A DNA stretch of 64,000 bases, taken from NCBI GenBank assembly GCA_016748015.1, contig JAAOMT010000176.1:234434-298433 (forward strand), given 5' to 3'. The notes beneath the pieces are model-generated. The model worked only from the letters and a program-made list of their open reading frames with translations. It did no database searches and had not been told where the DNA came from. The stretch's first letter is position 1, and every line of letters begins with the position of its first letter. The stretch comes from Geosiphon pyriformis uo1. Taxonomy: Eukaryota; Fungi; Glomeromycota. Of this stretch, positions 15,501 to 47,089 are shown one piece after another. A program made the translations under genes and the position numbers.

Positions 15501-17074
15501 TCTCAATCATAAGATTTTGGGATCATCAAGATCCAAGTCCTCCTTCACAAAACAAGAACACTACCAACCAACAAACATGCATTCAACAATCTCAAAAAAT
15601 ATCTCAACACTTTATCACTATCATGTTTCCATAGTTTATTAGGAATGCTGAACAAGCCAGCAGCTTTACCATCAGGCAGGCTATTGACAACCAAAAGCAA
15701 CTCACCCAAACTGATAATACCTATTACACTAGAAAAAGCACAATTCTGCACATAATCCAATAGAGCATACTAACAAGCCCAGAGATCAGGCACTATCAAA
15801 GACACTGCCCATTTCCTAATCCAACCTTCCATGATCCTATTAACATTGAGCTTTATTTTTTTAGGTTCTAAAATTAATTTATCATTCACCACTAAGTGAT
15901 CCAGAACCACTTTGTGAAAAGACTAATCCAAAACACTCCTGATCATGCTACCTTTGTCAAAGCAGAAATTTTTCATGCACTTTGAGACTGTTAATCTAAT
16001 AGTAGCCTTCTCAGCCAATCTTGACTTATATATCTTAGATCTTCTGTATTCTTTACAAACCAATGATAAATGTCTAAGAACCACTTCAGACTTTCCACTC
16101 AAGCCAACCAAGTTAGCAAAAGCACAAGTCTTGATGCTATCCAAAGTTGACCATGTCTTCACGAGACAATCAACTCCAGACAAGTTACCTGAACCAAACT
16201 TTTTAACAATTTTGGCAACCAACAATTCCAAACCAAAGAACTTAGAAGAAAATTTATTCTTAGAACAATAAAACTCACTAAATCAATGTCTCAAAAATGT
16301 CTCGTCAGCTGATTTCACCACCACTCTCTCCAAAATTGCTCACATAGCATCCATATTACCATGAGTTTCAGCACCAAAAAATTCATCAGTAACCACCAAA
16401 AGCTTGGCAGAAAGGCAATCCTTAAATCCAGTCCACTTGGGGCCATCAGCATCTTTGATTTTGAACTTCCAACAATCCTTGTTAGTCTGTTTGCACAAGC
16501 TATTCAACCAAACATTTAGGAGTTCACCCAAGCCAATCAAAACCAAAACAGCATTATAATCAGTGTCAAAAAAACCAGACACAGAGCAGATCTGATGACC
16601 AGTGACAGCAAAAGAAAGATTCTCACTAATAAAAATAAAATTGATTGTTTTTTCAACTCTCTGTAAATTGTTCTATGTGAGCACTTTTACTATATGATGA
16701 TTGGTAAATGAATTAATCAAACTCAGATCCAAACAGAACTTGAAGGTTGCACTCCTTTCAGACCCATTCTTATTAAAATTTCTACTCAAAACCACAAAAG
16801 TGCTAAAATTAACAGTTTCTGCAATCACAGAGTTCACCTTCAAAGCTTGACTGAATCTGGTCTCAGAAGAGACACCAGTATACAAATCCAGAACCATGAC
16901 TGAAAGCTTGTCTTTAAAAAAAAGCTGAACCAAAATAATCCGGCCAGAAATCTCCTTGATCTTAGACACATAGTGAGCCAATGAATTGTTCATAATCACA
17001 GCAACCCCAGTGCCGAGAAAATCTTTATTCAAGCCAGATGTGAAAACATACACACCTTCAAACTTATTAGCAAT
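12537..17074 (-). pseudogene. LINE-2 ORF2, 3' part (APE C-term, RT, RNase H, zinc finger)
   Basis: Fragments 16673..17053, 16340..16582, 15923..16231, 15545..15760, 14031..14780 and 13224..13853 are collinear with LINE-1 ORF2. Confidence 0.9.
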
Positions 17075-18055
17075 TGTTACCAGACGAAATTAGAGATATT
17101 ATTTAGCATGAAATTATCTTTATAATTCTTATCATTAATTAGCATATATCATTGTTTCAAATTATCACTTATTATATTAGCAAAATGTCCGAAATTATTA
17201 TTTAATTAATAACCCAATTTGTATATAATACAAATGTAACCTAATTGTGATGATTAATCATGCAATACCCCGAACTATGTAACATTCAAAAAGTTTGCCG
17301 AAATTTGTAGAAATTTGCTGAAATAATTGATAGTTCACCGAAATATCTAATAGTTTACAGAAATAACTTGTAGTTCACTGAAATGTATCTTTAGTTCAGC
17401 GAAATTGTAGAAAATAGCAAAGTTTAAGTTCATAGAATAGTGTTATGACAAGTTGTATAAAAGAAGAGCTTCTTTTTTCGAGGAAATGTATCTTACTTTA
17501 GATTTATCCCTTAGAACTGTTCCTATATACACAAAAAGAAATAAATATCAAATAATTTAAAAAACCAAATTTTTTAATTATTGCACTTGGAAAATCCCCA
17601 AAACCCAACTAACATTTCGAAATTGATTAGCTACCAATTTCAGTAAACTGTTAGTGACTCCAGGCCTGGATAGAAAATGTTTTCTTTGATAAAATTCTAT
17701 TTCTTTTACATTTCTTTTATTTTTCTTTTATTTTTTTATTACAATCATTAGGGTAATCTACAGACAAGATTCCTGTAGAAGAGTTGACTTTCACAGCAAA
17801 GTAACTACACAATTTTTAGTGAGCTTCCAGATGAGCAATTCCTGGGAAAGAGTTGACATTTACTACAACATAACTATACAAAGTAACTGGCATGGAATTG
17901 GCCATTCCATTCATAAGCCCAGCAGTTCAAATTATAGGAGATAATTTGAAGATAAATTCAGTTACTGGAGGTTCAACCACATCCAGAAAATGTGAATTTA
18001 CAACAAACAGGCATTAACAACATTTAAGAAAAGAGACCAAAAACCTCTGGTAACA
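17075..18055 (+). repeat. 5' LTR of Gypsy-A1 (981 bp)
   Basis: Begins TGTTACCAGA and ends TCTGGTAACA (10-bp terminal inverted repeat); matches 25987-26956. Confidence 0.96.
17294..17462 (+). promoter_or_regulatory. LTR U3 array of TTC-N3-GAA palindromes followed by TATAAAA
   Basis: Units at ~17294, 17304, 17314, 17334, 17354, 17374, 17395, 17404 and 17429; TATAAAA at 17456-17462. Confidence 0.6.
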
Positions 18056-18057
18056 TT

Positions 18058-18070
18058 TGGTGCTCTCTCA
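18058..18070 (+). other. Primer binding site (TGGTGCTCTCT)
   Basis: TGG begins 2 nt after the LTR CA and is complementary to a tRNA 3' CCA end; tRNA identity not determined. Confidence 0.8.
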
Positions 18071-20699
18071 TAGAAACCACACAATAAAAACAAATTCAAA
18101 GTGGCAACCACACCAGACACAACAACTCTAGAGTATTACCAGTCAATTTACACCCATTGCAAGCAAAGATTCAACATTCCAGACGGAATTGAAGTTGTCA
18201 AGAAATCAGTATACCAATACATTGAAAACCGCATCAACAATTATCTTTTTGAAAATTACAATATCTTAGAAGTTAGAAGCAACCTTTACAATAATTTAGC
18301 ACACTATTCACAGTTGGAAACTAAAGACCTTAACAGTGAAACACTTGCCACTTACTTTCAAGAACTTAATTTTAACATTATCAAGTACTGTGAAAAAACA
18401 TATCTAGTACAGTCTCAATACTCTATTGATTTTGAATTGAAGACAAAAACAAGCAACAAAGGCAAACACAAATTGAAGCAATACTCAAAAACCACCCCAA
18501 ATACTTCAATACTACCAAAAACAACTGCCAAACACTTACAAACATCTGAACAAGGAACCAGTTCAAAACTTCCACTCACCATCACACCTTTTCCAGCTTC
18601 ACTTGCACAAGCACAAACACCTAATTCACCCTTGAATCAATTTGCGAGACCAAAAGATTTTACATTACTCAGAAGTCCTACCAGACAGCAAGAACCCCTT
18701 CAAACTAGTTCCAATCTTCTTGATTTTCTAGCTGAAAATCAAAGTGAACACTCTGAGACAGCAGCAAATGAAGAAAATGACTCTGAAATAACTGAAGAAA
18801 AATCAATAGACAATGAAAATGAAAAAGATGAAATGACAGCATACATCACAAAAATTCCTGAATTTAATGGAAAAGACATTGAGACCAGTCTCCAAGAATG
18901 GCTTGACCAAGTTACTAAAGCTGGAGATGCAAATGGATGGAATGCTGCCAGAATGTTAAGAACAATTCCCTACTTTTTCAAAAGAACAGCAGGAGAATGG
19001 TTTGAAAACTTGGCCACTCCATTCAATGATTGGGATGCTTTCAAAGCAGCCTTTTTTGAACAGTTCACTGACAATAATATCTCCATCACTCTTCAAAATC
19101 GGTTTCACAATATCAAACAAGAATCCTCCGAATCTGTTATGACTTATATTGGGAAATTCAACAAACTTCTCAGATGAATTCGCCAACTCGAAACAAACAA
19201 TTATTATTCCAATGCTCAAATCTTGGATTAATTTATTGCTGGTCTAAAAGATAAACTAATTAAAAAGGTTTGCCCACATGCCTCAGAAGATTTAAACTCT
19301 GCCATACAGCATGCAAAAAGATACGAAATGGTCATGGAAGAGGCCAATTACACAAAACTTGTAAATTTGGCAATTGGAGAAACCAGCTTAGCAGCTGAGG
19401 AAAAAATTGACCAACTCACAAAGAAGGTTGAAAACTATTTCACCAATCAACAACAACAGCAACCCCAAAAATATCAACCACCCCAAAGATGAAATCAAAA
19501 TAACTTTACACCACTTTCTAATAACCAGCCTCAGGATTGCCATTACTGTGGAATCTCTGGCCACTGGAAAAGAGATTGTAGAAAGCTACAACGAGACCAA
19601 CAAAATAGGAGTAATCAATGTTACCCTCCACCACAGCAATTTTATTATCAACCACCACCACCAGCTTACTATCCACCAAGACTCCAATACCAAAGTAACT
19701 ATTATCAGCCCATCTCACAGCCAATTCAACAGCAATACCAACAACCACTCACACAACATTATCAAATATCTGCTCAAAGACTGATTACACAAAATCAATT
19801 TACACCACAAAATCGATACCAAGTAATCAACAATAGAATCAGTTCAAACAACCAATTGGTTCCCTGAAATCCCACTCAACCAAGACCCAACCATTATCAC
19901 ACTCAACCCAGTTATTTAACAATGCCAGAAGAACAGGATTTTCACCATACTGCACCCTTGGAAGATAGAGCTACAGCACAACAACAAAATCTCTCTCATA
20001 ACCACACCACTATTCCACCAGCCAGAATTGCTGAAAATGCCAATCTTTCTGATATATTCCCTTTCAAATTTGAAGCAAATGAATCACCATTCTTGCTTAG
20101 CAGTGCAGCAGCTAATGAGCAAAAAGCCATCACTACAATGTACACAGAAGCTGAAGCAGAAGGAAAGCCAGTTCGCTTGATCCTAGACAATGGATCCACC
20201 GGAAGCATCATTACCTACCAGTTGATGCAACAGTTAAAAAGAAATGTTGACCGACCAGCTCAGACAGTAATCATTACTGCTGATGGCATGAAAAAGACCC
20301 CAGTAGGAGAAATTGACAATTTTTCGTTCACTCTTGATGGAATCACCATTCCAGTCAAAGTTCTTGTAATAGATGCTCCTCAGTATTAAGCCCTTGTCGG
20401 AAACAATTGGCTCCAAAAAGCCAATGCGAAATTAGACTGGGAAACTCAAGAACTACAAATCTCTTACCAAGGACAACATGTCTGAGTACCTGCCACTTGT
20501 AATACATTCAACAAACACTCCAAAAAAGCCCCGGCTTTTGAATTCGAACCAGAAGAAGAAAAACCAATAATTGAAACATTCATGGCTCTTGAATCAACGT
20601 CTAATTGGGCTGATAAAACTGAACAAAAACATTTTACCTCACACTCTGAACCCAAAACCTCTGGATGGAATATCCCTTACTCAAAGCCTGAACCAAAGA

Positions 20700-21330
20700 A
20701 ACAATGCCCCTACATTCTCCTTAAATGTAAGGACTGCCACAAGAAACTATTGTCAATAAAAGCCTGCATTTCACCTGAAGAAAAATATAAAAATCATACT
20801 TGTTATTACTGCAAGGCTTGCCACAGAGAATGATAGGGCCATCTAATAAAAAAAAGTGGAAAATGGGACAACACTCCTTGTTTAACTTGTGGAGAGATGC
20901 TACCAGAAGAATGCAATTGGATTGATGTAGCAATAAGAGGAGGAGTCTGTGATCAAACCTGCCAATATGTTTTATCAATTTTAGAAAAAGTCAAAGGAGG
21001 AACACCCTTTGATGCAGCATACAACAGTGTTCTCAACAAACTGTACCATTATTCTTATGATGCCAAAATGATTTTCGACCTAGCAATGGCTTTAATCAAT
21101 GGAGCCACTCAAGAAAATGTTCGTCAAATGAAAGAATCAGAATACATTGCATACACCTTTGAAATTGCTGGATACAACTACAAAGATGAAATAGAAATAT
21201 ATTACCAAATTGCCAGTCACACTTATCCGACCAAAGAAGCTCAAGCTCAATGGCTAGAGCAAATGAATGTTAAATTGTGTGAAGAATGCATAATGCCCTG
21301 TGATGAGCAATGGTGCCCTGAATGCTATGC
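20700..21330 (+). other. Multi-CxxC cysteine-rich domain between protease and dUTPase
   Basis: CKDC, CKAC, CLTC, CDQTC, CEEC and CPEC; homologous remnants in Gypsy-A2 (~36370-37000) and Gypsy-B1 (~51640-52350). Confidence 0.8.
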
Positions 21331-21479
21331 TCTTAGCATTCTCCTGCCCAGTGAAAATGATGAAAACAAAATTGAATTTGAAGAACCTGAAGCAACAGAA
21401 GAAATTGAAACAACACCCATTTATCTTATTGAAAGTCAGCCTGTCTTACAACTCAAATACTTCAACAACAACAGACAAG

Positions 21480-21880
21480 GAATAAAACCTGAGAAAACAC
21501 ATAAAATTGATGCTGAATATGACCTAAGATATCCAGACAAGGATACTCTTGTTCTCAAACCCAAATCTCTCACAAAAATCAACCTCAAAATTGCACTTGA
21601 AATCCCACCAGGAGCAATGATTCAAATTGCCTCCCAGTCCTCTCTGGTAAGCAAAGAAATTAATGTCAGAGGAGAAATAATCAATGCTGGATATACGGGA
21701 GACATTATAGTGATGCTTCAAAATAAAACTGACAAATTATTCAAGATCGAACATGCTGAAAAAATTGCCCAAGCTATTTACCTATCCCTAATCAACATTT
21801 TGGGTTTGCAACTAGTTAATTAAAGAGAACAATTAGGAAAAAGTGATAGAGGAACCCAAAATTTTGGTTCAACTGGATGA
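21480..21880 (+). pseudogene. dUTPase domain within the polyprotein
   Basis: All five trimeric dUTPase motifs recognisable: DAEYDL, IASQSSL, GEIINAGYTGDI, IAQAI, RGTQNFGSTG. Confidence 0.9.
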
Positions 21881-23769
21881 TTCACAGTTCCAGTTAATAT
21901 AGCTCTTAACACACAGAATGAATTCCACCAGATTCTCAGACTTCTACAACCAATTACCATCTTATTCTTTGAAGAACATCCAGAAATCTACACCTGCCCA
22001 AAGCCAACAACCACACAACAAATTTTTGAGTCCAATGAACAAGTCTGCTTGAAACATAATATTTTGATCCCAAATATTTATATTCCAGAAGGAACAAAGA
22101 AAGTCTAAGTTACTTTTTACAATCCCAACAATTACCCCATAGTTCTATTAAATAACTTAGAAATTAGAGTCATTCACAGTAACATCTTTTAACAAGAACT
22201 ACCCCAGACAGTTCTCAATTTCTCAGAAATCATTGAACATTCACTACCAAAAATCAACCCAAACCTTAGCTCTAAAAACTACCATGTTGTCATGGAAAAA
22301 CTATCTCAAATCAACATGGGACAACTTGAACCACAACAACAAAGCCAGCTCAAAGAGCTAATTACAGAATTTGCCAATATCTTTGCTAAAAACAACAATG
22401 ACTTAGGAAGAACCAATTTGGTCCAACACCAAATTTATACAGGAGATGCCAAACTAAGAAGACAACAGGCATATCAAGTTGCTCTAGAAAGCCACCAATT
22501 CATCCAAGAAGAAGTACAACGAATGCTTAACAACAGGCTCATCCAATCCTCTATGAGTCCTTGGACTTTACCTATAGTGCTAGTTAAAAAAAAATGGAAA
22601 GATATGATTTTGTGTTGACTATCGACAACTTAACAGTATTACAATTGAAGATGCCTACCCCCTTCCCCGAATTAATGACATGTTAGATGCCCTTGGAAAA
22701 TCCAAATACTTTTCAACACTAGATTTAGAAAGCGGTTACTGGCAAGTTGCTATGGATCCCAAAGATTGCCCCAAAACAGCATTCACCATCCAAGACAGAA
22801 ATTATGAGTTCAATATAATGCCTTTCGGATTATGCAATACACCAGCAATATTTCAGAGATTAATGAATGTTGTGTACTAAGAACTTCTTTAGAAGTCAGT
22901 AGTCATTTATCTTGATGATACTGATGTTTATTCTCTATCGTTCAAATTACACTTAAAACATCTGCAAGAAGTTTTTCAACGATTATGAAAAGCAGGACTA
23001 AAACTCAACATCAAAAAATGCTACTTTGGAAAAACAAGCTTGGCCTTCCTTGATCATATTGTTAGTAAAAACGGAATCAAACCAGACCCTGGAAAAATCA
23101 GCGCTGTCAAAAACTTCAAAACTCCTCAAAACACTACAGAACTAAAAAGATTCATAGGATTAGCCTCCTACTATCAGAAGTTTATTAAAAGATTTTCAGA
23201 AATTGCAAAATCTCTCAACCAGCTTACCACCAAAAACGTCAAATACGAATGGACTGCTGAATGCCAAAATGCATTTGAAATCCTCAAAGAAAAACTAATG
23301 ACAGCTCCAATTCTCACTTACCCAGATTTCAGCAACCAATTCTGATTAGCAACAGATGCCTCTTATACTGCCTTTAGTGCTATCTTATCACAACTGGATG
23401 ACAATGGAAATGAGCGAGTAATCACCTATGCTAGCAGAACATTAAAACCAGCTGAAAAAAATTATCCTGCCACTGAATTAGAAACAACAGCTGTAATTTG
23501 GGCCCTACATTATTTCAATCTTTATCTCTGGCCAAAGAAATTCGATATTATTACTAATAATATTGGACTCAAATGGCTTCAAAACAAAAATACTCAGCTG
23601 AATGCAAAACAAATCCGATGGACAGAATTTCTAGCAAACTATTGATACATAGTATATTACAAATCAGAAAAACTCCACACCAATATTGACTGTCTCTCCA
23701 GAATGAGACAAAATTAGAAAACACAAAAAACCAACACTCAACTTAACCAACCAAAACAGCCAACAAACA

Positions 23770-25155
23770 ATGAATTCGGAAAACTACAACAATCTCAAAC
23801 AATATTTGGAAACATTAACAATCCCAACAAATTGGTCTCTAAATAAAAAACATTGACTACAACAACAAGCCAAACAATATTTTCTACACAACAACATTAT
23901 TTATCATCGAAATTTTAAAAACCCAGACAAATCACTCAGATTAATACAAAAACAAGAAAAAGAGACTATATTATATAACATGCACTCAGATTCTTCATCA
24001 GCACACTTTGGAAAAAACAGCACCACCCAAAGAACACTAGAATACTACTTTTGGCCTCGAATGAAAAAAGACATTCACGAATATGTCAAATCTTGTGATA
24101 GTTGTCAAAAAAGAGAAAGAACACACCCTACTGAACCATTAAATTCAATCAAAGTTGGACAACCCTTTGACTGAGTTGGTATCAATTTAGTCAGACCACT
24201 ATCTATCACCACTCAAGAAAACCATTATATTGCAGTAGCTGTAGATTATCTTACTAAATGGCCTGAAGCCAGAGCCATTCAATGAGCAGATGCAAAATCA
24301 GTGGCAAATTTCATCTATGAAGACATTATATGTAGACATGGATGTCCAATTGAACTTTTATCTGATCAGGGGACACACTTTGTGAACAACCTGATACAAA
24401 AAATTTGTGAACGATTCAATGTCAAAAGACCTCTGTCTTTGTCCTACCATCCACAAACAAACAGACTTGTGGAATGTTTTAACAGAACATTGTGTGAGTC
24501 ATTAGCCAAAGTTTCAACTGATTTTGAGCAAGAATGGGATATCTTTATTCCATCAGTATTACTAGCATACAGAATACTAAAACAAGATACCACAAAACAC
24601 ACACCATTTGATTTAACTTATGGAAGAACAGCAATATTACCAATTAGTTTCACAGTAGAAACATACCCAGCACAACCAATCAATGAAAACAATTTCCAGA
24701 AAATGCTTCAACAAAGAGCCTACACACTTCTCAGCACATTGAAAAGAAAACAACGAATAGCAGCCACCCATATTAAACACTCCCAAACTCAACAAAAAGA
24801 ATGGCATGACAACAAATTGCCTTCAGTTACCAATGATTTTAAAGTTGGAAACAAAATTCTCCTACACAGAACTAAAGCTGAAAAACAATGGAGTGGAAAA
24901 TTTGAAAATAAATGGGATGGACCATTCTTTATCTATGAAATACTAGGCAATAGATCATACAAGTTAAGACTTGATAACAAAATGCTAGCAAAAGTTGCAC
25001 ATGGAGATTATTTAAAATACTATCATTCCAGAAACAATTCTGAACCATTAATTCCACAAATTGGTACACATTCCCCTTTAGTCAATCCCAAAGATATTCC
25101 CTGAAACTTAGAACCAATAATTGTCATTGAACAACCTTTCAACTTGAACACTTAA
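23770..25155 (+). pseudogene. Gypsy-A1 integrase, separate ORF with its own ATG
   Basis: ATG at 23770 in a different frame from RNase H. HHCC finger (MHS..AHFG..CDSC), DDE core (LLSDQGTHF..VE.FNRTL), GPY/F motif (KWDGPF); ends NLEPIIVI..TAA. Confidence 0.92.
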
Positions 25156-25340
25156 TTTAATATTACTAGTTATTCCCTTATAATTTAAAAATAATTTCAC
25201 AAAAACAAAACAAAACAAAACACTAAAAGACAAAAATAACATAAAAATCCACATACCAAAAATAATCTCAATCTATTTTTTTTACTCAAATTTTTATAAT
25301 AACTATCCCTCAAAATATTCAACAAATATCTCAAAAATTA

Positions 25341-26018
25341 ATGCTAGCTTTAAAAACAATACCCAAATTATCTATTACTATTACAGGAAAACATATTAAT
25401 TATACCCAAACAGAAATAGTTGCCAATTTAGCCCCAAATTCACGAAATTATCACCTCTACAAAAAGAACACAAGAAGTTACTCTGGAATTCATCTACCAG
25501 AACTCTTGAAGCTTGCTTTAAGAGAAAATTTAATGTTCATTTCTATTAGTATTCCACCAAATGCTACTATTCAACAAAAAATTCAACTGTGTCTTAATGA
25601 AGAAAACCATGACTATACTCCAATATATAGATATTTCTACATTGGAAAAACACTTCATGAACAAAAATGGGAGCTTACAGCAGCAAACTTTACAAAAGAA
25701 ACTATTCAAAAACAACTTCACAATGAATTCAAAACAACAGCTGGACCTACAAACAGTCACTATAAACTAAGAGCTGCTCTTAAACTTTATAACCTATTCC
25801 ACACCTGTAAAAACGTCCTACAAAACCCAATTTTACAACCTTTGAAGATTCAATACATTGAAAAGCTCACAAAACTGAAATTTCAACAATTTTCAGACCA
25901 AATTTCTTTAATAATTTTGGATTATTATCTGGAAATTACAGACAGTACTTGGACTTCGATGAAGCTCAGTCTTGAGGAGGAGATTATGTTACCAGACAAA
26001 ATTAGAAATATTATTTAG
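25341..26018 (+). CDS. Gypsy-A1 ORF3, 225-aa accessory protein of unknown function (env position, not env-like)
   Basis: Intact ATG-stop ORF between integrase and 3' LTR, overlapping the PPT and LTR start; homologues at the same position in three other elements here. Confidence 0.8.
   Translation: MLALKTIPKLSITITGKHINYTQTEIVANLAPNSRNYHLYKKNTRSYSGIHLPELLKLALRENLMFISISIPPNATIQQKIQLCLNEENHDYTPIYRYFYIGKTLHEQKWELTAANFTKETIQKQLHNEFKTTAGPTNSHYKLRAALKLYNLFHTCKNVLQNPILQPLKIQYIEKLTKLKFQQFSDQISLIILDYYLEITDSTWTSMKLSLEEEIMLPDKIRNII
25974..25983 (+). other. Polypurine tract GAGGAGGAGA
   Basis: Ends 3 nt before the TG of the 3' LTR. Confidence 0.8.
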
Positions 26019-26956
26019 CATGAAATTATCTTTATAATTCCCATCATTAATTAGTATATATCATCGTTTTAAATTATCACTTATTACATTAGCAAAATGT
26101 CCAAAATTATCATTTAATTAATAACTCAATTTGTATATAACACAAATGTAACCTAATTGCAATAATTAATCATGCAATACCCCGAATTATGTAACATTCA
26201 AAAAGTTCACCGAAATTTGTAGAAATTTGCTGAAATAATTGATAGTTTACCGAAATATCTAATAGTTCACAGAAATAACTTGTAGTTTGCTGAAATGTAT
26301 CTTTAGTTCAGCGAAATTGTAGAAAATAGCAAAGTTCAAATTCATAGAATAGTGTTATGACAAGTTGTATAAAAGAAAAGCTTCTCTTTTCAAGGAAATG
26401 TATTTTACTTTAGATTTATCTCTTAGAACTGTTCCTATATACACAAAAAGAAATAAATATTAAATAATTCGAAAAACCAAATTTTTTAATTATTGCACTT
26501 GAAAAATCCCCAAAACCCAACTAACATTTCGAAATTGATTAGCTACCAATTTCAGTAAACTGTTAGTGACTTCAGGCCTGGATAGAAAATGTTTTCCTTG
26601 ATAAAATTCTATTTCTTTTACATTTCTTTTATTTTTCTTTTCTTTTCTTATTACAATCATTAGGGTAGCCTACAGACAAAATTCTTGTAAAAAAGTTGAC
26701 TTTCACAGCAAAATAACTACACATTTTTAGTGAGCTTTTAGATGAGCAATTCCTGGGAAAGAGTTGACATTTACTACAATGTAACTACATAAAGTAACTG
26801 GCTATTCTACTTATAAGCCCAGCAAGTTCAAATTATAGAAGATAATTTGAAGATAAATTCAGTTACTGGAGGTTCAACCACATTCAGAAAATGTGAATTT
26901 ACAACAAACAGGCATCAACAACATTTAGGAAAAGAGACCAAAAACCTCCAATAACA
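25987..26956 (+). repeat. 3' LTR of Gypsy-A1 (970 bp)
   Basis: Matches the 5' LTR apart from transitions and an ~11-bp deletion between short TGGC repeats (~26800). Confidence 0.96.
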
Positions 26957-27113
26957 CAATCCAAGGCTTGATACTGAACCTTAATTTAGTTTCCATAATA
27001 AAAGATACTATATTACCAGAATTTACATGCCAATACACAATGTCTACTTGTTTTGCAGAAACATTGATACTGTGAACATTACACACAGCAAACTTTTATG
27101 TCAAACCACTCAT
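26957..27113 (-). pseudogene. LINE-2 ORF2 N-terminus (APE start)
   Basis: MSGLT*KFAVCNVHS..; removing Gypsy-A1 and one CAAT restores KPWIANKFEG. Confidence 0.88.
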
Positions 27114-30785: not shown

Positions 30786-31704
30786 TATTATAAGTCTTTT
30801 TTTTAAATGTGATTAATATTTGTTTACTGTTAATTTATGTTTTTTGAAAGCAGTTAAACCTCTAATAACTGAATTTATCTTCAAATTATTTTTTATAATT
30901 TAAACTGCTGGGGTTATAAGTAAAATAGCCAATTTTATGCTAGTTATTTTATGTAATTATTTTGTAGTAAAAGTCAACTCTTTCTCAAAAATTTTTCATC
31001 TAAAAGTTCACTAAAAATATATAGTTATTTTGTGGTAAAAGTTAACTTTTTTATTAGAATCTCATCTGTAGATTATCTTAATAATTATATTAAGAAAGAA
31101 AAAGAAATAAAAAAAATGTAAAAAAATTGAAATTTTATTAAGAAAATTATTTTCTATTCAGGCTTAAAGTCACTAATAAATTATTAAAATTAATAGCTAA
31201 TTAATTTTAAAATATTAATTGAATTTTGGAAAATATTAAGTATAATTATTTTAAAAATTGGTTTTTGAAATATATTTTTATTTTGAATTGTATTAATAAA
31301 AATAAATTTAAAGTAAGATATATTTTTTCACAAAGAAAAGCTCTTTTTTTATATAACTTATTATAGTACTAATTTATAAACTTAAACTTTTTTCTTTGCT
31401 ATAATTTTAACAAACTAAAAATATATTTCAGTAAATTACAAGTTATTTCGATAAATTATTAACTATTTTGGTGAATTATCTATTATTTTGGCAAATTTTT
31501 GAATATTACATAGTTTGAAGTATTGTGTAATTTAATCACTCTAATTTTTATTATACAAATTGGGTTATTAATTAAATAGTAATTTTTAATAATTTTAATT
31601 AACTAATAAGTAATAATTTAAATAATGATAATCTATGTTAATTAATAATAAAAATTATAAAAATAATTTTATGTTAATTATTGGCTAAAATTCTATTGGT
31701 AACA
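30786..31704 (-). repeat. 3' LTR of Gypsy-A2
   Basis: Reverse complement aligns with the A1 LTR and begins TGTTACCA at 31704; left end degenerate. Confidence 0.85.
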
Positions 31705-34700
31705 TAATTTTTTCCTTAAAATTAAGCTCTGTCAAAGTCCAAGTACTACCTGTAATATTGAGATAGTAGTCCAAAATAATTAAAGTAATTTGGTCTAAAA
31801 ATTGTTAAAATTTTAGTTCTGTGAGTTTGTCAATATATTAAATCTTTATTGGTTAAAGTATTGAATTTTGTAGGATGTTTTCACAAGTATTAAATAGGGT
31901 ATAAAGTCTAAAAACTGTTTTAAGCTTGTAACAAATATTTGTTGATCCAGCTACTGTTTTGAAATTGTTGTAAATTTGTTTTTGTATAGCTTCAGGAGTG
32001 ATATTGGTTGTTTCAAGTTCTAGTTTTCGTTCATAAAATGTTTTTCCAATATAAAAATATCTAAAAATAAGAGTATATTCATGTTTTATTTATTATGACA
32101 CAGTTAAAGCTTTTGTTGAGTTGTGGTATTTGGTAAAATATCAATAGAAGCAAATAAAAAATTTTTTTTTAAAGTTTGCTTTAAAAGTTTTGGTAATTGA
32201 ATTCCAAAATAACTTTTTGTATTTTTTTTATAAGAATGATAATTCTAAGAATTGTTTACTACTGGTGTTATAGTTTTTTTTTGAGTATAATTAATTTAAC
32301 TTTCATTAATTATTATGGATAGATTAGAAAGTGTTTTCAAAATTAATATTAATTTTTGGAATATTTGTTAAATATTTCGAAGAATAATTATAATAAAAAT
32401 AAGTAAATTAAGAGTGAAATTTGAAAAATAAGAAATATTTTTGGATAAAGTTTTTTTATATTTTTGGTTATGAATTTTTTTTGTAATTATTTACTATTTT
32501 TGTTTTCATATTTATATATTATTATTAAAAAATATATTATAATAACATTAAATTAAATGTTCAGATTTGGTTATTGTTTTATAATAATTATTGATTCTAA
32601 ATTTCAGAAAATATTTTCAGAATTAATTAAAGAGAAATGTATACTAATTTGTAAAATTAATGATTCAGAATTGTTTTTGAAATAATAATGTTTCAATCAA
32701 TTTTCATATACAACTTTTGTTAGAACTTTGTTATTAAGTCTTAATTTGTATAATTTATTATTTAAAATTTCATAAATATAAAATAGTTTATTTCATTTAT
32801 GTTTAAATTTTTTACTTTATTGTTTTTCAGTCTTAGTTCTATATAAAAAAACTTTGTTTTTAACTTTAAATTTGTTGATAACTAATAATAAATTGTTATT
32901 ATGCTATTTTTTTTGTTAAGCTTAAAAGTGTTTAATATGAATAACTGCAATTTGTTATTTTTTTTCTAAAATGCTTAAAAAGATATAAACTTTTTATTGA
33001 AATATTTCTTAAAAATATTTTTTTGTAATAGATTGTATTGAATATGTTTTTACAGTAAAATTAATTAGTAGTATTGCTGTTTTTCTATAAGTAAGATCAA
33101 ATAGTATGTGTTTCATAGTATTTTGTTTTAGTGTTTTATATGTTAATAACACTAATAAAATAAAAATATTTCAATTCTGTTTAAAATTAGTTAAGACTTT
33201 GGCTAATAATTCACATAATGTTCAGTTAAAATATTTTAATTATCTATTTATTTAGGAGTAATAGAGTAATGATAAGGATCTTTTAACATTGAATTGTTTA
33301 CAAATTTTTTGTATTAAGTTATTTACAAAGTGTGTTTCTTAATTAGATAAGAGTTCAATTGAACATTTATATCTACAAATAATGTCTTTATAAATAAAAT
33401 TTGCCACTGATTTTGCATTTTTTTTATTGAATAGCTCTGGTTTTGGGTCATTTGGTAAGATAATTTACTACAATTGCAATATAATAGTTTTTTTGAATAA
33501 TAATAAGTAGTAATCTAACTAAATTGATTTTTATATTGTTAAAAAGTTGTCTAACTTTGATTGGCTTTAAAAGTTTAATCAGATGAATTTCTTCTTTTTT
33601 TTGACAACTATTACATGATTCTATATATTGTTAAATGTTTTGGTACATGTATAACTAAAAATAATATTTAACTGTTTTTTGAATTGTATTATTTTTTCTT
33701 AAGTATACTAATAAAAAATCTGTGTACATATTGTATAAAATATTTTTTTTTATTTTGTTAGACTAATTTGAATAGATTTGTTGGGTTTTTGTAATTTCAA
33801 TAATAGATTTTGTTATAGTGAATAAAATATGGCTTTATTTGGTTTTGTAATTAGTGTTTTTCAATTGAAGACCAATTTTTTGGCATGTTAAAAGTTTTTA
33901 AATAGTTTTTGATGTTGTTGTAGTTTTTGGAATTCATTATTTTGTTACTAATTTGTTTATTGAGTTGTTAGATTGTTGATATAAATTTTAATATTGGCTT
34001 ATTTTGGAAAGATTATTAATGTTTATGTATAATTTTCTTGATTTGTGGTATACAATATATTTATAATTGGCTAGAAAATTAGTTTATTGGGATTGCTTTG
34101 TACTAAGTTCAAAGTTTTTTTTGTTGAGCTATTTGAGACCAATATTATTAATAATAATATCGAATTGAAATCCATTTCTGAAATATTGCTAAAAATGTTT
34201 GAAAGTTCAGATAATGGCTATTGCTTTTAATTCAGTTGAATCATATTTGAGTTTTGTTGGCTTGAGTGTTCTACTGACATATGTAATTACTTACTTATTG
34301 CCATTGTCATTTAATTATGATAAAATGATACCAAAAGCTATATGTGAAACATTAGTAACTAACTGGAATCTTTTGCTAAAGTTAGAATAAGCAAAAATTG
34401 GAACAGTAATAAGTTTTTCTTTGAGAGTATTGAATATTTGTTGTTGAGTTTGTGTTCACATCCTTATTGGTTAGATAATTGAGTGGTTTGGTAATTTCTG
34501 AAAATTTTTTGATGAATTTTTGGTAATAAAAGACTAATCCTATGAATTCTCTTAGTTTTGTAGTATTACAAAAAACTTAAAAGTTTTTAACAGCACTAAT
34601 TGTTTCTGGATTGAGTTGAACTCCATCTTTGCTAATAATATGTCAAAAGAAAATCAAACTTGTTTCTCTTAAGTGACATTTTTTAATGTTTAGTTTTAAT

Positions 34701-37700
34701 TTTACTTTTTGTAATTGTTGAAAAACTTTCTACAGGTAAATCAAATAAGCTTCAAAACTTAAAAAGTACACATTAGTATTATTAAGATAGACAACTACTG
34801 ATTGCCATAAAAGTTTTTTATAAACAACATTCACAAGTCTTTAGAATATTGTTAATATATTGCAAAGTCCAAAAAACATAACATTAAACTTGTAGTTTCT
34901 TTTTTGTATAGTAAATACTGTTTTAAGATAGTTTTTAAGATTTATTTCAACTTGCTAGTATTTGTTTTCTAAGTCTAAAGTTAAAAAGAACTTGGCTTTT
35001 TCAAGAGCATCTAACATATTGTTAATTCTTAGAAGAGTATAAGCATCTCTAATTATTATATTATTCAATTGTTAATAATCAACACAAAATCTGATTTTTT
35101 CGTTTTTTTTTTAACAAAAACTATTGATGAGGCCCATAGACTTTTTAATAATTAAATAAAACTATTATTAAGCATTTGTTGCACTTTTTCTCTAATAAAT
35201 TAATGGCTGGTAGATAAAATTTAATATGTTTAATGATGTTTTGGTGAAGTATTTTTTGTGTGAATTTAATGTTAAACAATATTAATTTTTTCTAAGTTAT
35301 TATTGTCTTTTGCAAATATATCAGCATATTTGACAATTAGTTGTTTTAATTATCTTTATTGTTGGAATTCCAAGAGACTTATATTGATTCAAAAAAGTTT
35401 CTCTTCTATTATGTGATTGTTTTCAATAGTGGAACTGATATTTGAGTTTAAAAGTAGTGTGTATTTTACAAATTTGATGAAATTAAAAACAATTTGAAGA
35501 GTTTTTTCTTAAAAGATATTACTATATATAATTTCAATTTTTAATTTATTTAATAAAATAATGAGGTGTTTGTTAAAATTTTAAAAAATAATCTGAAATT
35601 TTTTCATTTTTTTTAGAATATAAACATTTAAAATTAAGATTTTATGCTTTAAACAGATTTGTTTATTTAATTTAAAGATTTATTAGGTGGTAATAGGTTT
35701 TAAACAAATGTAAATTTTGTAATATTTTTTAAATGATAAGATAGTAATTGGTTGTAAAAGTCAAAAAATCTGGTAAGATTTATTTTGTGCCTTAAGAGTT
35801 ATGTTTACTGGAACTGTGAATTGTTTAGTTAAACCAAAACTTTGGGTTCCTCTGTTATTTTTGTCTAATTGTTCTTTTTGATTGACTGGTTGTAAACTCA
35901 AAATGTTAATTAAGACTAAGTAAATTACTTAGACAATTTTTTTAGTATGCTTTATCTTAAATGACTTTTCTGTTTTATTTTGTAACATAATTGTGATGTC
36001 TTTGGTATATCCTGTATTTATAACTTCCTTTAATATTAATTTTTTTGTTTGCCAATAATAATTGGGAAGCAATTTGAACTATTGCTTTTGGTAGTATTTC
36101 AAAAATAATTCTAAGATTGATTTTTGTTAAAGACTTGAATTAAAAGATTAGGATATTTTTGTTTGAATATTATAAGTCATATTCAACATTAATTTTATGG
36201 GTTTTTTTGGCTTGATCTCTTGACTATTATTGTCAAAATACTTGAGTTGCATGATAGATTGATTTTCGATCAAATAAACTGGTGTTGTTGTGATTTTTTT
36301 TTTGGTTTAGGTTCTTCAAATTTAATTTTGTGCTTGTTGTTTTTATTGAACAAGGAGATACTAAGAGCATAGCATTCTGAACACTATTTATTATTATAAA
36401 ACATAATGCATTTTTTGCATAATTGAATATTTATTTGCTTTAATTATTGAATTTAAGCTTTTTGGATCAGATAAGTATAGCTGGCAATTTGATGATATAC
36501 TTTTACTTCATCTTTATAGTTATATCTAATAATTTCAATGATGTATTTGATGTATTTAGTTTATTTTATCTAATAAACATCTTCTTGGATTCCTTTATTA
36601 ATTAAAATTATGGCTAGTTTATAAATTATTTCAATATTAAGTGAATAATAATAAAGTTTATTAAGAGTACTATTATAAACAGCATCAAATAAGGTTTTTC
36701 TTTTTACTTTTTCCATAATTAATAAAACATATTGGCAAGTTTAATTACAAACTCTTCTTTTCATTGTAATATTAATCCAGTTGTATTTTTCTGGTAGTAG
36801 TTTTTTACATGTGAAACAAAGAGTGTTGTCTTATTTTCCACTTTGTTTAGAGTATTTAAATTGTTTCTAGTAATATGTTTTATAGTAATAGCAAGTGCAT
36901 GTCTTATATTCTTCTTCTGGTAATATATAAGCTTTTATAGATAAAAGCTTTTTGTTGTAATTTTTGCATTTGAGTAAGATATATAGTAGTTGTTTTTGTA
37001 GTTTTGGTTTAGAATACCAAATTTTATTTCAACTACTAGTTTCTTCAAAAAATTTTTGTTCTGTTTCTTTGGCCCAATTAGATATTGATTTAAAAGCCAT
37101 ATAAGTTTTGATAATTGGAATTTCTTTCTCTTCAAATTTAAACACAAAAGCTTTTTTGATTATTTGTTAAAAGTATCACAAGTAACAAGTACTTTGGTGT
37201 ATTGTCTTTGATATAAAATCTTGAGTTTTTGGGTTTTTCAATCTAAATTTGCATTGGCTTTGAGGAGCCAGTTGTTTTCAACAAGAATTTGGTATTAGAA
37301 TATATTCATAACAAAAACTTTAACTGGAATAATGATTTCATTGATTAAAAAAGAGAAATTATTAATTTTTTTCATTGAAGTTTTTTTTATACTATTAGCT
37401 ATAACAATAATTGTTTGGGCTGGTCAGTTAATATTTTGTTTGAATTGTTGTATTAATTGATATGTAATAATGCTTTTGACAGATCTACTATTTAAGATTA
37501 GTTAAATTGATTTTTCTTCAACTTTAGTTTTAATATATATTGCTGTAATTGCTTTTTGTTTTATAACTGCTGCATTATTGAGTAAGAATAGTGATTTATT
37601 GACTTCAAATTTGAATAAAAAGATATCAGAAAAATTGGTATTTTGGATAATTTGAATTGGTGGAATAGTATTATTGAAAAGATTTTGTTTAAAACTGTAG

Positions 37701-39561
37701 CTTTACCTTTAAAAAGTGTAATTTGTTGAAAATTCGATTTTTCTGATATTATAAAATAACTAGGTTGTGTATAGTAATAATTAAGTCTTTGTTGAATTGA
37801 ATTTTAAAAAACTAATTGGCTATTGAGATTAAATCTATTGTTGTTTGTTGTAAATTAGTTTTGCAATGCAAATTGGTTTTGTTAAACTAATTTTTAAGCA
37901 GATATTTAATATTGCTAAACTGGTAGTTATTGATATTGTTGTTAATTAGATTATAAAGCAGATTAATAATAATTGTTCTAATATTGAAGCCTTGATAGAT
38001 TGTAAGATGGTGGTGAAGATTAGTAATAGATTTGTTATGATTGGGAATAATATTGATTATTTTTTTGCTGCTAGTCTTATTGTATTTTTTGGCAATTTTG
38101 TTTTCAATGTTCTGGAATTTCACAATAGTAACAGCTTTGACTTTGACTGTTTGATGATAAAAAGTTGCTTGAATTTTGTTATTGTGGTAATTAATATTTC
38201 TGTTGTTGCTATTGTTATTGGTTGGTAAAATAGTTTTTAACTTTTTTTGCAAGTTAATCAATTATTTTTTTAGCTGCTAAGCTGGTTTTGTTGATTGCAA
38301 AATTGATGAGTTTAGTATAGTTTGTTTCTTTCATTGCTATTTTATAGTTTTTTGCATGTTAAATAATTGTAGCTAAGTCTGTTAGAGTGTAGAAATAAAC
38401 TTTTTTGATCAATTTATCTTTTAATTCAGCTATAAATTAGTCCAAAATTTAAGCATTAGAATAATACTTATTGGTTTTTAATTGTTAAATTTGTTGGAAA
38501 AACTTGTTGAATTTCTTAAAATAAGTTATAACAAATTTAGAAGATTCTTGTTTAATGTTTTGAAATTGGTTTTGGAAAGTAATAAAAATGTTGTCATTAG
38601 TAAATTGTTTCAAAAAAGCATCTTTAAATGTTTGCCAGTTTTTAAACCATTTGTCTACTGCTTTTTAAAGAAAGTATAAAATTGTTTTTAATATTCTTAC
38701 TGCATTCTATTTATTTGTATTTTCTGCTTTTTGAACTTTATCAAGCCATTTTTGTGAACTAATGTCAGCATTTTTTTCAGTAAATTTAGTAATTTTTACA
38801 ATGTAAGTGGTTGTTATTTCTTTTGTATTTTTGTTTTTAGTAGTTTTTTTTTCTGTAAATTCAAAAATGTTTTTATTGTTATCAGAGTAATTGCTTTGGT
38901 TCTCTGTTAAAAAATTGAGAAAGTTAGTATTAGTAAATACTGATTTTGGTTGTTAAATAAGGCTTTTTGATAAGATAAAATTTCCTGGTTTCAAAAACCA
39001 GATAAGAGATAAATTAAGTGTTTGCAATTGAGCAAGTAAAATTAAAAATAGTGTAATAAAGAGTGGTAATTTGATACTGGTTCTTTGTTTAGGTGTTTGC
39101 AGATATTTGGCAGTTATTTTTAGTATATTGTGGATTGTTCTTAGATTTTGATTTTGTTTGTTGTTATTTTTAGGTTCTAATTCTATATTTAAAAAGAATT
39201 TGGATTGTCCTAGATATTTTTTTTCACAATATTAAATAATATTAAAGTTGAATTTCTAAAAGTAGATGTTGAGTATTTTATTGTTAAAGTCTTCTGTTTT
39301 TAAGTAAAAATAGTATAATAAATTTTTGTAAAGATTGTTTCTGATTTCTGAAATATTGTAGTTTCCAAAAAGATAATTGTTAATACAGTTTTTAATATAT
39401 TAGTATAATGATTTCTTGAAAATTTCAATTCTATCTTGAATGTTAAATTTTTGTTTACAGTAAATGTAAATTGATTAATAATACTTTAAAGTTATTGTAT
39501 TAGATATAATTATCACTTTAAAGTTGTTATTGCTGTGTTATTTTTATGAAAAAACACCAAA

Positions 39562-39820
39562 TATTACTGGAGATTTTTGGTCTTTTTTTTTAAATATGGT
39601 TAATATTTGTTTGCTGTTAATTCACGTTTTTTGAAAGCAGTTGAATCTCTAATAACTGAATTTATTTTCAAATTATCTCCTATAATTTGAATTGCTAGAC
39701 TTATAAGTAAAATAACCAATTCTGTACCAGTTATTTTATGTAGTTATTTTGTAGTAAAAATCAATTTTTTTAAGAATTGCTTATTTAAAAGCTTATTAAA
39801 AATATGTAGTTATTTTGTGG
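39562..39820 (-). repeat. Partial 5' LTR (U5 side) of Gypsy-A2
   Basis: Matches ~30790-31035, then breaks after TGTGG into a family-B LTR. Confidence 0.85.
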
Positions 39821-42800
39821 TATTACAAGTAATTATTTGGAATATTAAAACAAATAACAAACCTGTAACTTAGTGTTTAATAGCTGTTAATAATAGTGGT
39901 TTTTAAAGATTTTGGTTAAGTTTTTTGTATAATAGACAGAGATTTAATTAATGGTTTTTTCTGTGAATTTTTTTTTAGTATGGTAACTGGTTTATTCTAA
40001 CAGTTATGCTCTTTTAATGAGTTATTTTTAAGTTTTTTACCCTTGTTTCTGGGTCTTTTACCAGACTATCTTTGAGATTAATTACTTAATGGTTAATCTC
40101 TTAATCAATTAGTAAACCACAAAAAAAATAAAATAAAAAAATAAAATAAAAAATTAGTATTTGTCAATAGTCATAATTAAGAGTTATTGATTTAGTGTAA
40201 TTAAGTATTAGATTTTATCAACATGGAGTGTTGATAGTGTAGAATAAATTAATATTTCTTTAATCAAATAATGATAACATAGATTTGAATAATAATAAAT
40301 GTTTTATTAATATAAATATAATTTCACTTCAAGTTATAAAAAACTATTTTTTAAAGGAAGAAGTATTGTTATTCTGAACTAAATTGTCTGCCCTTCTTGT
40401 TTCTAATACTTTTACTATATATACATAATTTATATTATACAATATTTCTTAAAATCTTTCAATTCTTTTAAAAAAATCTTGGAATTCTAAAATTCTTCTT
40501 TTTACTATGCTTATTTCTAATTGGCTATTTTATCTACTTATTATAATTCCTAATTTCTATGAGTAATATTATTCTCTCTTTTTAATATTGAGTTCTGTTA
40601 AGATCTTCTAAATTTTTTAAATCTTCTTCTTGAATTAGCTCCATAATTTTTTTTTTAAGAATTACTTTTATAATTCTAGTCTGCAATTTTTCAAATTAAA
40701 TATTGATTAATTTTTCCAGTTAATTAATAATTATTGTACTTATTTTTGAGTGTAGCAGTATTTTTGGCCAGTTCTGAAATTCTATTTGTAGTTAATAAAT
40801 AACTTTTATATATGTAAATAAATTGTTTTTTTCCATAATTTGTTTAATTTGTTGTACTATAATTAGATCAAATATACTTTTGGTTTTATTTATATATAAG
40901 TTCTAAATATTTAGTTTCTGTTTTAACTGAAAATAACAAAAGTTTTTAAAAATTTGTTATGTCTATTGGTTTCAATTTTTTAAAACAAATTTTTCATTTT
41001 GTATTAATATTCTTGGAGTTTTCAATATTTTATTATTTTTATTATTATTTTATATACTGGATTTTCAAAAGTATAATATTTAAAGTATTGTTCTTTACTT
41101 TGTAATCTTTTAATTATTCTTTTGTCTTTAAATTATATTGTTTATTTGTTAATAATAACTTTAAAACTTGATTTCTGATGTTAAATAAGTTGTAAAAGTT
41201 ATTATGTAAATAAGTAAATATTGTTAATAATTTCTATTTTTATTATATTATATGTATTGGTTTTTTATATACTGTTCTGGTTAATCAATTTAACATGTTT
41301 GTTTCAATAATTATGATTGGTTCCAAATCTTGTAGAATCTTATCTGATTTAATTAGTATTTGTTGTACTTTTAATTATAAAATATTATTGGTAGATAATA
41401 AGCTATATTGTGATATAATTTTAGTTAATTACCATATACTGTTTTGGCTAAGATTTTATTGTCTTATCTTAATTTGTATGTTTTATTTCTTTAATATAAA
41501 ATAGATTATTTTATTTGAAATTAAAATTTCTACTCCATTGTTTTTCTACTTTGGTATAATATAAGAGTACTTTGTTTCTTATCCTGAATTCAATTGGTTT
41601 ATTTAGTAATTGGTTGTTATGTTATTTTTTTTTGTTTTGCTTGTAATTTTTGTATATTATCAACTGCTTTTTGTTTTTTATTTTTTAGAGTTTTTATTAA
41701 GTTATATGTTTTTTTTAGCAATGTTTTTTAAAAGTTGGTTTCTGTTATTGGTTTAATTAGATATATATTAATATCTATTTTAACTGGTATTATGACTGTT
41801 TTACTATAAATTAGTTTAAATAGTATTGCTTATATAATATCTTGCTTTATTGTTTAATAAGCAATAATACTAATAATATAAACAAATCCTATTTATTCTG
41901 GTTTTTTTGGCTTATCTTAGTTATTGCTTCACATAGTGTTCTGTTAAATTTTTCAACTAAATTATTAGTTTATGAATAATATAAAAATAATAATGGTTAT
42001 TTGATTCCAAATCTCTGATTTAATTCTGTTAATTTTTTGTTTACAAAGTGAGTTTTCTAATTTAATAATAATTTTTTTGAACATTTATGTCAATAAATCA
42101 AATCTTGATATATAAATTTGGCTACAGATTTTGTATTTGCTTTTTGAATTGCTTTTGCTTCTGGCTATTTTGTAAAATAATTTATAACTACTGCTATATA
42201 TTGGTTGCTTCTACTAATTATTGTTAATAATCTGACTAAGTTAATTCCAATTCAATTAAATAGTTGTTTTATTTTAATTGGTCTTAGTAATTTACTGGAT
42301 TTTATTCCTTTTTTTTTGACAAACATTACAACTTTGAACATATTAGATGATATCTAGATATATTAATAGCCAATAATATCTTTTTTTGGTCATTTCTATG
42401 ATTGTTTTTTTATAAAATATTCTGTAGTTAGATCTGAGTACATATTGAGCAATATTGTTTTTTTTCTGGTTCTATAATTACTTTGAGTGATTAATCTAGA
42501 TTTTTTTTGTTTTTCCAATATAGTATATTTTAGTATATAATAAAATATTTTGATTGTTGTTTTATATGGTTTTGTTCTTTTTAAAATAATTTTTTTTTGA
42601 ACTTTTAAGTATTAATATAATGTTAAAGTTGTTGATATTTTTGTGTATTTATCTTTTGTTATATTTTTAAATTGAAATGCTTTTAGATTTATTTTATTTG
42701 TAACAATTCTTCAACATTTCTGTTTTCTTTTTTCTTTTTATAGTGTACTGTATAATTAAATAATAAGAGTTCTATTTTTTATTTGACATAGTAATTATTT

Positions 42801-46227: not shown

Positions 46228-47089
46228 TATTACAAAAGATTATTTAGGGTCTCAAAACAAATAACAAATCTGTAATTTGGTGCTCAATTGATATAATGAT
46301 GTTAATTTCTGAAGGTGTTATGGATTTAAAGGTTTTGATTGAGTTTTTTATATAATAGACAGAGATTTATTATGGTGGATTTTGGTTGATTCCTCAAGTC
46401 ATTTTCCCAATTTCCGTCTTTAGCATAGTGGCTGGTTTAATCTGGCAGTCATGCCCTTCTAGTAAGCTATCTGTTACTATATATATAATTCTATTCTTAT
46501 TTTTGGGTCTTTTACCAAGCTATTCGTGATATTAATAACTTAGTACTTTAATCCTTTTAATACAACAACTAAAAAAAAAGAAAGAAAAATAAAAAAAAAG
46601 ACAAGAAAATATAAAAAAGTTAAGCCAAGGCAATTAAGTTAGTATTTTGTCAATAGCGATAATTAAGAGCTATTGTTTTAGTGTGGTCAAATATTAATTA
46701 CTATCAACATGAAGTGTTAATAATGGAAAGTGAATTGAGATAGCAAATAATTATTTATTGATACTTGTGATTTGGAAAGATTGCTTAGATTAAATTTAAA
46801 CTAGAAAGTCTGTTTTTTTTACTTCTAATACTACTGTTATATATACACAATTGAAATTCTTCAATTCCTCAATTCTTCACACCAAGAATTCTGGAATTTT
46901 TGGAATCTTGCAATTCTTTTGAGAGGAATCCTGGAATTCTGGAATCCTGTGATTCTTTATATGAGAATCTTAAAATTCTTGAAATTCTGCAATTCCTCTG
47001 AGAAGAATCCTGGAATTTCATATTTACTACAGCTACTTCTGATTGGCTAATTTATATGTTAATATACTTCCTATATTCTATAAGTAACA
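46228..47089 (-). repeat. 3' LTR of Gypsy-B1 (862 bp)
   Basis: Matches 55388-56259 with a 10-bp deletion. Confidence 0.93.

Follow-up and report, generated by a model that had tools for sequence, protein, structure and literature searches.

A decayed Ty3/Gypsy-derived element of Geosiphon pyriformis points to a retrotransposon lineage with a separate integrase gene

In retroviruses and long terminal repeat (LTR) retrotransposons, integrase reaches the particle through its fusion to Pol. How would an element make and deliver integrase if its pol frame closed before the integrase began? This question is raised by a stretch of 64,000 nt from the fungus Geosiphon pyriformis uo1 (Glomeromycota; assembly GCA_016748015.1, contig JAAOMT010000176.1, positions 234,434 to 298,433 of the forward strand), here called the window and numbered from its first letter. 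At 17075-26956, on the plus strand, it carries an LTR element, A1, whose two LTRs (981 and 970 nt) share 92.5% identity. On balance we favor reading A1 as a decayed copy of a Ty3/Gypsy-derived lineage with a separate, Met-started integrase, likely translated by stop and restart. Very probably, the end of the Pol frame after RNase H and the separate integrase gene are the real layout. A reading of the window from its letters alone (the sequence-only reading) had proposed a distinct Ty3/Gypsy-type lineage with a separate integrase and a third open reading frame (ORF3); this proposal holds, and the lineage is wider than claimed, reaching by sequence comparison to the mycorrhizal fungi Rhizophagus irregularis and Cetraspora pellucida and to many metagenome proteins. 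The parts of A1, all on the plus strand, are as follows.

17071..17074: left target-site duplication (TSD) CAAT, 4 bp
17075..18055: 5′ LTR, TGTTAC...GGTAACA, with a TATA-like motif at ~17456 and AATAAA at ~17540
17298..17384: direct-repeat array in U3 (the LTR's unique 3′ region), six (C/T)(C/T/A)GAAAT units in 10/20-nt steps, non-palindromic
18058..18069: primer-binding-site-like (PBS-like) sequence TGGTGCTCTCTC
18074..19585: decayed Gag, with an N-terminal extension of ~250 aa, a Ty3-type capsid at ~18848-19354 and a CCHC knuckle at 19538-19585
20147..20416: aspartic protease, in the Gag frame
20699..21349: Cys-rich domain with 16 conserved Cys, in the Gag-protease frame
21440..21880: dUTPase, in the frame of Gag, protease and Cys domain
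22590..23717: reverse transcriptase (RT) and RNase H, ending in a conserved TAG at 23715-23717
23718..23769: A/C-rich spacer of 52 nt from the RNase H stop to the integrase ATG, with 1-nt indels in other copies
23770..25155: stand-alone integrase with a Met start, YPYY-like motif, H2C2, DDE core and GPY/F-SH3; four premature stops
25299..26018: ORF3, 239 stop-free codons, first ATG at 25341, ending 32 nt within the 3′ LTR
25974..25986: polypurine tract (PPT) GAGGAGGAGATTA, within ORF3
25987..26956: 3′ LTR
26957..26960: right TSD, CAAT

The LTRs begin with TGTTAC and end with TAACA, their U3/R/U5 borders being inferred from the TATA and AATAAA motifs alone. The window also holds a second copy of this family (A2) and two copies of a family B (B1 and B2), which carry the same domains as A1 wherever the region is present. 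As had been claimed, the LTRs of the two families do not align: blastn gives only short, A/T-rich matches of at most 41 nt. The 4-bp TSDs also stood (CAAT on both sides of A1, ATGT at B1, where one LTR end is decayed), as did the PBS-like TGGTGCT, found 2 nt past the LTR in both A1 and B1. The Gag start of A1 seems to adjoin the PBS (18058-18075; other copies begin METIQQ), which leaves almost no post-PBS leader.

With stops read as X, Pfam places the capsid (Gag), zf-CCHC, protease and dUTPase (E 2.8e-11) of A1 in one frame, RT/RNase H in a second and integrase in a third, the Gag matches (PF19259, PF03732 and PF00098) corresponding to capsid and nucleocapsid. The decay of A1 amounts to 21 premature stops and one frameshift, and the five premature stops in the RT/RNase H region are attributed to it. 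At each of the 12 stops from Gag to the start of RT, 12-48 other copies have a sense residue, mostly Q/R/W, a comparison that shows only that sense versions exist, since gene models cannot contain stops. The frame change at ~22595 falls within a run of A, a place where B1 stays in frame. Given sense residues elsewhere at the stops of A1 and an intact B1 frame at the A run, we infer that Gag to RNase H is a single frame.

The boundary after RNase H is of another kind. Across 274 contigs (80% alike) covering 23670-23810, neither the stop at 23715-23717 nor the integrase ATG at 23770-23772 has an alternative letter at 3% of depth or more. In the spacer between them, 1 nt is deleted at 23725 in 23% of depth and at 23722 in 6%, and an insertion reaches 6%; these figures have no coding A-run control. 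A2 keeps both the stop and the ATG, 50 nt apart. The claim of a stand-alone integrase in both families is borne out for family A, with its invariant stop and ATG. For family B it is not established, as its two decayed copies disagree: the RNase H stop of B1 overlaps an ATA where the integrase begins, and B2, which differs by 1 nt at the junction, reads in frame through three TAA codons.

Relatives were sought with an RT/RNase H query against proteins of 647-2000 aa, from which the best 120 of 5,430 matches were taken. A first RT tree contained 86 of these plus A1 and B1, with 34 multi-RT or partial models left out. Among the 86, 35 end at most 25 aa past RNase H, 18 have an integrase-less tail and 33 are fused to integrase. 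One branch, supported at 98 by the Shimodaira-Hasegawa-like approximate likelihood ratio test (SH-aLRT), divides the rows into 38, 32 of them fused, and 50, among which 49 (A1 and B1 included) have no fused integrase; within the tree, A1 and B1 join four dUTPase-bearing proteins (SH-aLRT 92). In a second RT tree of 54 hand-picked rows, a 23-row clade (SH-aLRT 96) consists of 20 integrase-less Pols, A1, the metagenome locus L079 and one fused protein, P0263. Nearly all cluster members that reach the C-terminus (70 of 71) end within 5 aa of their representative's end, so the Pol ends are true stops, and integrase occurs in just one of 112 members, that one in the P0263 cluster. Clusters of the clade include R. 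irregularis (P0216, P0238) and C. pellucida (P0250), most others being metagenome proteins. A subclade, P0236-P0294 with L086 2-1149 and including an R. irregularis cluster, has an acidic, Cys-containing tail of 70-390 aa from RNase H to the stop.

At the DNA level, a generic RT scan of metagenomes gave one clade member among at least 79 loci, L079, in which the RNase H stop is followed by 74 nt and then integrase. Two further loci, L085 and L086, lie on contigs within two bacterial metagenome-assembled genomes (MAGs), one copy each, and are probably fungal carry-over or contamination. In all three, the first Met of the integrase ORF aligns with the integrase Met of A1, and the integrase frame opens only past the Pol stop, which rules out simple frameshifting or readthrough at those loci. 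Spacer lengths of 50, 52, 74, 94 and 102 nt represent all three frames. The five split integrases (A1, B1, L079, L085 and L086) and P0263 form a clade with SH-aLRT 99. The order in L086 runs from integrase through a 146-aa ORF3, PPT and an LTR starting TGTTAC to a PBS and the next Gag. Scans of viral contigs with integrase queries found no clade member, one of them giving five ordinary fused-type elements.

Several points weigh against a separate integrase translated by stop and restart. The junction is seen directly, on both sides or the downstream side, at just four loci outside family B, the other members being proteins without DNA context; in family B itself, with its two decayed copies, a split is not established. 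The comparison at the A1 junction took in only contigs 80% alike, from a run that is possibly the window's own sample. The trees came from quick searches with SH-aLRT support only and contain no named reference clades, and the fused P0263 is nested inside the split clade. Ordinary decay has broken the stretch from RNase H to integrase at 14 of the other 78 metagenome loci, where no Met stands at the homologous position. The integrase frame of A1 already lies open 11 nt ahead of where the RNase H stop ends, so that a +1 shift is possible there, and the L079 spacer contains an out-of-frame ATG. Reinitiation over 50-100 nt after a frame of ~1,900 codons is also unusual. The ORF3 of L086 was tried as a homologue of the A and B ORF3s and failed (E 0.16; 6.0 bits, with 2 of 500 shuffles higher), leaving it equivalent by position only.

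In the mechanism that we propose, Gag, protease, Cys domain, dUTPase, RT and RNase H would be made as a single polyprotein with no frameshift, and integrase would be made from the same RNA, by ribosomes that stop, cross the short spacer and start anew. The short or overlapping junctions and the kept Met fit termination-reinitiation, a mode of translation known for human L1 ORF2 and SART1; taking the layout as given, we hold this route about as probable as all others together. Gag and Pol would seemingly be made 1:1, and a coupled downstream gene would then lower the integrase dose. Integrase, lying outside the polyprotein, would enter the particle non-covalently by binding RNA, RT or Gag. The dUTPase would keep the complementary DNA uracil-free in non-dividing nuclei (spore nuclei of R. 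irregularis are in G1 according to the accessible part of bioRxiv 10.1101/2025.09.02.673565), and the interval between protease and RT would be a slot for exchangeable cargo. ORF3, whose end lies in U3 and which lacks a membrane segment, would act in the nucleus as an accessory protein, with regulation of the element through nucleic-acid binding as the leading candidate role. Host defence would later have riddled the copies with C>T/G>A changes.

The cargo of the slot varies. The Cys domain keeps its 16 cysteines in 77-100% of aligned copies, most often Tyr where one is replaced, and shows 34% identity from A1 to B1 (E 3e-28); its matches, the window's own protein aside, are all (65 of 65) named Geosiphon pyriformis hypothetical proteins. 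It has no Pfam match, and its structural model, of low confidence, gave a best fold Z of 4.8 and no BFVD match. The five dUTPase motifs are intact in 18, 7, 5, 26 and 4 of 65 copies, respectively. The common plan that had been claimed for both families stood as to domain order, which is the same in A1, A2, B1 and B2 where present. As a whole, however, the plan is not fixed: among the best 120 RT matches, dUTPase occurs in five and a piece of this Cys domain in one, P0275, which has dUTPase plus the last Cys cluster, and others carry either another small Cys motif or a NUDIX domain ahead of the protease. Since the presence of Cys domain and dUTPase differs among relatives, the slot is variable. 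The NUDIX domain before the protease in P0243 and P0251 is a second nucleotide-cleaning enzyme besides dUTPase. In public gene models of these elements (P0121-P0185), Gag, Cys domain and dUTPase are present and RT or integrase almost never, probably through repeat masking, and hundreds of "hypothetical genes" are transposon parts.

ORF3 is likewise conserved as protein. The A and B versions align from the Met to the LTR with 24% identity over 184 columns (E 3.3e-5); with the Cys-domain identity and the unalignable LTR DNA, this upholds the proposal that both were retained by selection. The absence of stops from the 239 codons in A1 is not significant in itself, against ~2 expected. Nine ORF3s measure 188-239 aa, four of them basic, and the maximal 19-residue hydropathy of 0.68-1.29 in all nine indicates soluble proteins with no membrane segment. 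The best 120 of 203 matches are all named Geosiphon pyriformis hypothetical proteins (the window's own protein aside), and a search of 1.84 billion representatives gave 35 clusters, six of them distant (20-28% identity), two of which are fused to sequence of a long interspersed nuclear element (LINE) resembling the window's LINE. A scan of metagenome contigs for ORF3 found none. Pfam gave no match for member 1, only weak scattered matches in 64 members (best DUF1016_N, 11 of 64, E 0.003) and none to envelope (Env) proteins; against PDB sequences the best E was 0.29, no match. The predicted model has a mean predicted local distance difference test (pLDDT) score of 48, best in the helices at 108-175, which form a three-helix core; a fold search with it reached a best Z of 6.3, none at 8, with no BFVD match. 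With pLDDT of 48 for ORF3 and 56 for the Cys domain, these low-confidence models exclude nothing where they drew a blank.

Each family has its own U3 array, which the sequence-only reading had described as palindromic. This is right for B, with its GAATTC-like palindromic units in a 40-nt repeat, and wrong for A, whose array repeats directly and whose LTRs show no enrichment of 6-mer palindromes (4 observed against a shuffle mean of 7.2); both array motifs were chosen after looking at the sequence. The heat-shock-element pattern GAAnnTTC is absent from the A LTRs and occurs at most three times in the B LTRs. We consider a role for ORF3 as a regulator of the LTR plausible, if tentative. The more specific proposal, that ORF3 or the Cys domain is a trans-activator or anti-silencing factor on the U3 arrays like foamy-virus Tas or VANDAL VANC, is compatible with any integrase route and seems to us possible but rather unlikely. 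It would suit a soluble, sometimes basic protein that ends in U3 and has a predicted three-helix core, a separate array per family, and a genome that mutates repeats heavily. On the other hand, no homology, Pfam or fold link to DNA-binding or demethylation factors emerged (again with low-confidence models), so the proposed activity found no backing here; the Cys domain is part of the polyprotein, and relatives have other cargo in its place; the L086 LTR has neither array motif; and all copies in the window are heavily mutated nonetheless.

For the integrase, the main rival to reinitiation keeps the split layout and has integrase, with or without ORF3, expressed from its own subgenomic RNAs, either spliced from the 5′ LTR or started at an internal promoter, as for foamy-virus Pol and Tas/Bet or the rotifer ORF3s; we rate this as a minority possibility. 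Spacers reach ~100 nt, a T-rich gap of 143 nt lies upstream of ORF3, and in the A1 spacer a TTAAC precedes an AG that lies 11 nt ahead of the ATG. The ORF3s of LTR elements are, moreover, typically spliced, according to the accessible text of PMC5408684. Yet the L079 spacer contains no AG, and the base before the only AG of the A1 spacer is G in 86% of depth, making a poor acceptor; together these argue against a splice acceptor in the spacer, and in B1 the integrase start overlaps the RNase H stop.

Improbable in our judgement is a second rival, in which integrase is still fused by programmed frameshifting or stop readthrough at the RNase H end and then released by the protease, its Met being a leftover. 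Fusion would solve packaging, the fused P0263 lies within the clade, the A1 frames overlap by 11 nt, and B2 is in frame through its TAA codons; against this, the spacer lengths fall in all three frames with 1-nt indels common, and the integrase frame of L079, L085 and L086 does not open until past the Pol stop. The last rival, that the split is decay (a stop plus a frameshift in dead copies) with ORF3 and Cys domain as mere passengers, is largely refuted and very improbable: A1 does carry 21 premature stops and a frameshift, and similar breaks occur at 14 of 78 unrelated loci, but the stop and ATG are invariant among related contigs, intact open Pols share their end in 70 of 71 members, the integrase Met is homologous at four loci, and ORF3 and Cys domain are conserved as protein between families with unalignable LTRs.

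The other copies in the window, all on the minus strand, are these.

30794..39817: A2, a more decayed family-A copy with a GC fraction of 0.21, its 5′ LTR cut at the B2 LTR, ATG kept
39818..43131: B2, a partial, 5′-truncated family-B copy with the end of RT/RNase H, integrase, ORF3 and LTR
46230..56259: B1, a full-length family-B copy with ORF3 at 47100-47733 and the U3 40-nt repeat with GAATTC-like units

The B2 LTR interrupts the 5′ LTR of A2 at 39817/39818, and B2 terminates in an inverted second B-type LTR (43129-43970). Three copies of one LINE are present (5189-12125, minus; 12308-17074 with 26957-29010, minus; 56477-63072, plus), with an RRM-bearing ORF1 and an endonuclease-RT-RNase H ORF2; the first is nearly open. 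A1 is inserted within the endonuclease domain of the second, whose halves rejoin at the same residue. The strong repeat mutagenesis that had been claimed is evident: transitions (C/T or G/A) make up 60 of 61 differences between the A1 LTRs and 115 of 118 between those of B1. Across these LTR pairs (17075/25987 and 46230/55390) the C>T/G>A decay spans every dinucleotide context (CpA, CpT, CpC and CpG), a decay that is methylation-driven or like repeat-induced point mutation (RIP). For Gigaspora and Mucoromycotina, the accessible text of bioRxiv 2021.03.30.436303 reports that RIP signatures are missing.

Such elements seem to make up a major share of the LTR mass in these fungi: 61,061 contigs of one DNA run, which may be the window's own sample, match A1, and the available part of PMC11952901 gives LTRs as 41.2% of the G. 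pyriformis genome. A successful clade with free integrase would make testable both particle entry without fusion and dose control by stop-restart translation. Annotation pipelines that expect a single pol gene will misread these elements. ORF3 and the Cys domain each form a conserved family of proteins, for which no Pfam, PDB or fold match was found with low-confidence models.

Among known systems, Ty3/Gypsy elements (Metaviridae, PMC7879559) share the LTRs, a PBS-like site, PPT, capsid and nucleocapsid, and the order of protease, RT and RNase H followed by integrase; the relative P0216 has Ty3 RT as its best solved-structure match (E 7e-102 vs 2e-61 and 2e-35 for the next kinds). However, the pol of the ICTV (virus taxonomy committee) definition includes integrase (PMC7879559), whereas here a conserved stop and a separate ATG intervene, and the third gene has no transmembrane segment and so is not Env. 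With integrase outside pol, we class the lineage as gypsy-derived and gypsy-like in its working, not as a canonical member of Metaviridae. An errantivirus or other env-bearing gypsy element was rejected on the ORF3 hydropathy and the lack of an Env Pfam match, and a chromovirus on the lack of a chromo Pfam match in the A1 frames and the L086 integrase, both of which end soon past GPY/F-SH3. Troyka, with 3-bp TSDs and CG...CG termini in the accessible text of PMC12440569, differs from the 4-bp TSD and TG...CA of A1.

The sequence-only reading had held that canonical gypsy elements lack these extras, and this does not stand. According to the text consulted in PMC2864245, PMC5408684 and PMC6431247, some gypsy elements of fungi and rotifers have a dUTPase placed between protease and RT. 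The fungal ones (Postia PosPlaTy3-5, Phanerochaete and Tuber Tmt1, basidiomycete among others) belong to chromovirus-type surveys, with no separate integrase described in that portion of PMC2864245, and Pfam gave no chromodomain match here. The bdelloid rotifer elements Juno, Vesta and TelKA share a dUTPase in pol and a variable non-Env ORF3, but their integrase lies within pol and their ORF3s are of DEDDy, GDSL, transmembrane or Env types (accessible text of PMC5408684), to which no Pfam match was found here. The integrase resembles the YPYY integrases of Athila/Tat, Cer1, Gypsy-1-I_RO, DGLT-A1 and Ginger1 in Y..P..Y/F..Y before H2C2, GPY/F, the 4-bp TSD and the TGT start, a likeness matched to the motif's description in part of PMC2836005, with no named references in the trees. 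Ginger1 shows, in the same source, that a YPYY-type integrase can work as a free protein; as a DNA transposon with terminal inverted repeats and no RT, it was rejected for A1, which has LTRs and RT.

No account of a gypsy clade with integrase as its own gene turned up in the open literature searched (Repbase, GyDB and Dfam as well as subscription papers and supplements lay outside it), and this gypsy-type variant with a free-standing integrase, wider than the window, is apparently undescribed. Foamy viruses have the accessory proteins Tas and Bet, express Pol separately as a whole and possess Env. They resemble these elements in an enzyme gene uncoupled from Gag and a 3′ accessory ORF running into U3; they differ in that the whole Pol is separate there and integrase alone here, RT similarity is much lower, and no link between ORF3 and Tas was found. 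We tentatively raise, as a speculation that we do not favor at present, that these elements are an undescribed Glomeromycota-wide LTR branch whose integrase left the polyprotein, to be translationally coupled and packaged in trans, and which in Geosiphon-type genomes added an LTR-binding ORF3 family and a zinc-binding Pol domain, an independently evolved plan like that of complex retroviruses.

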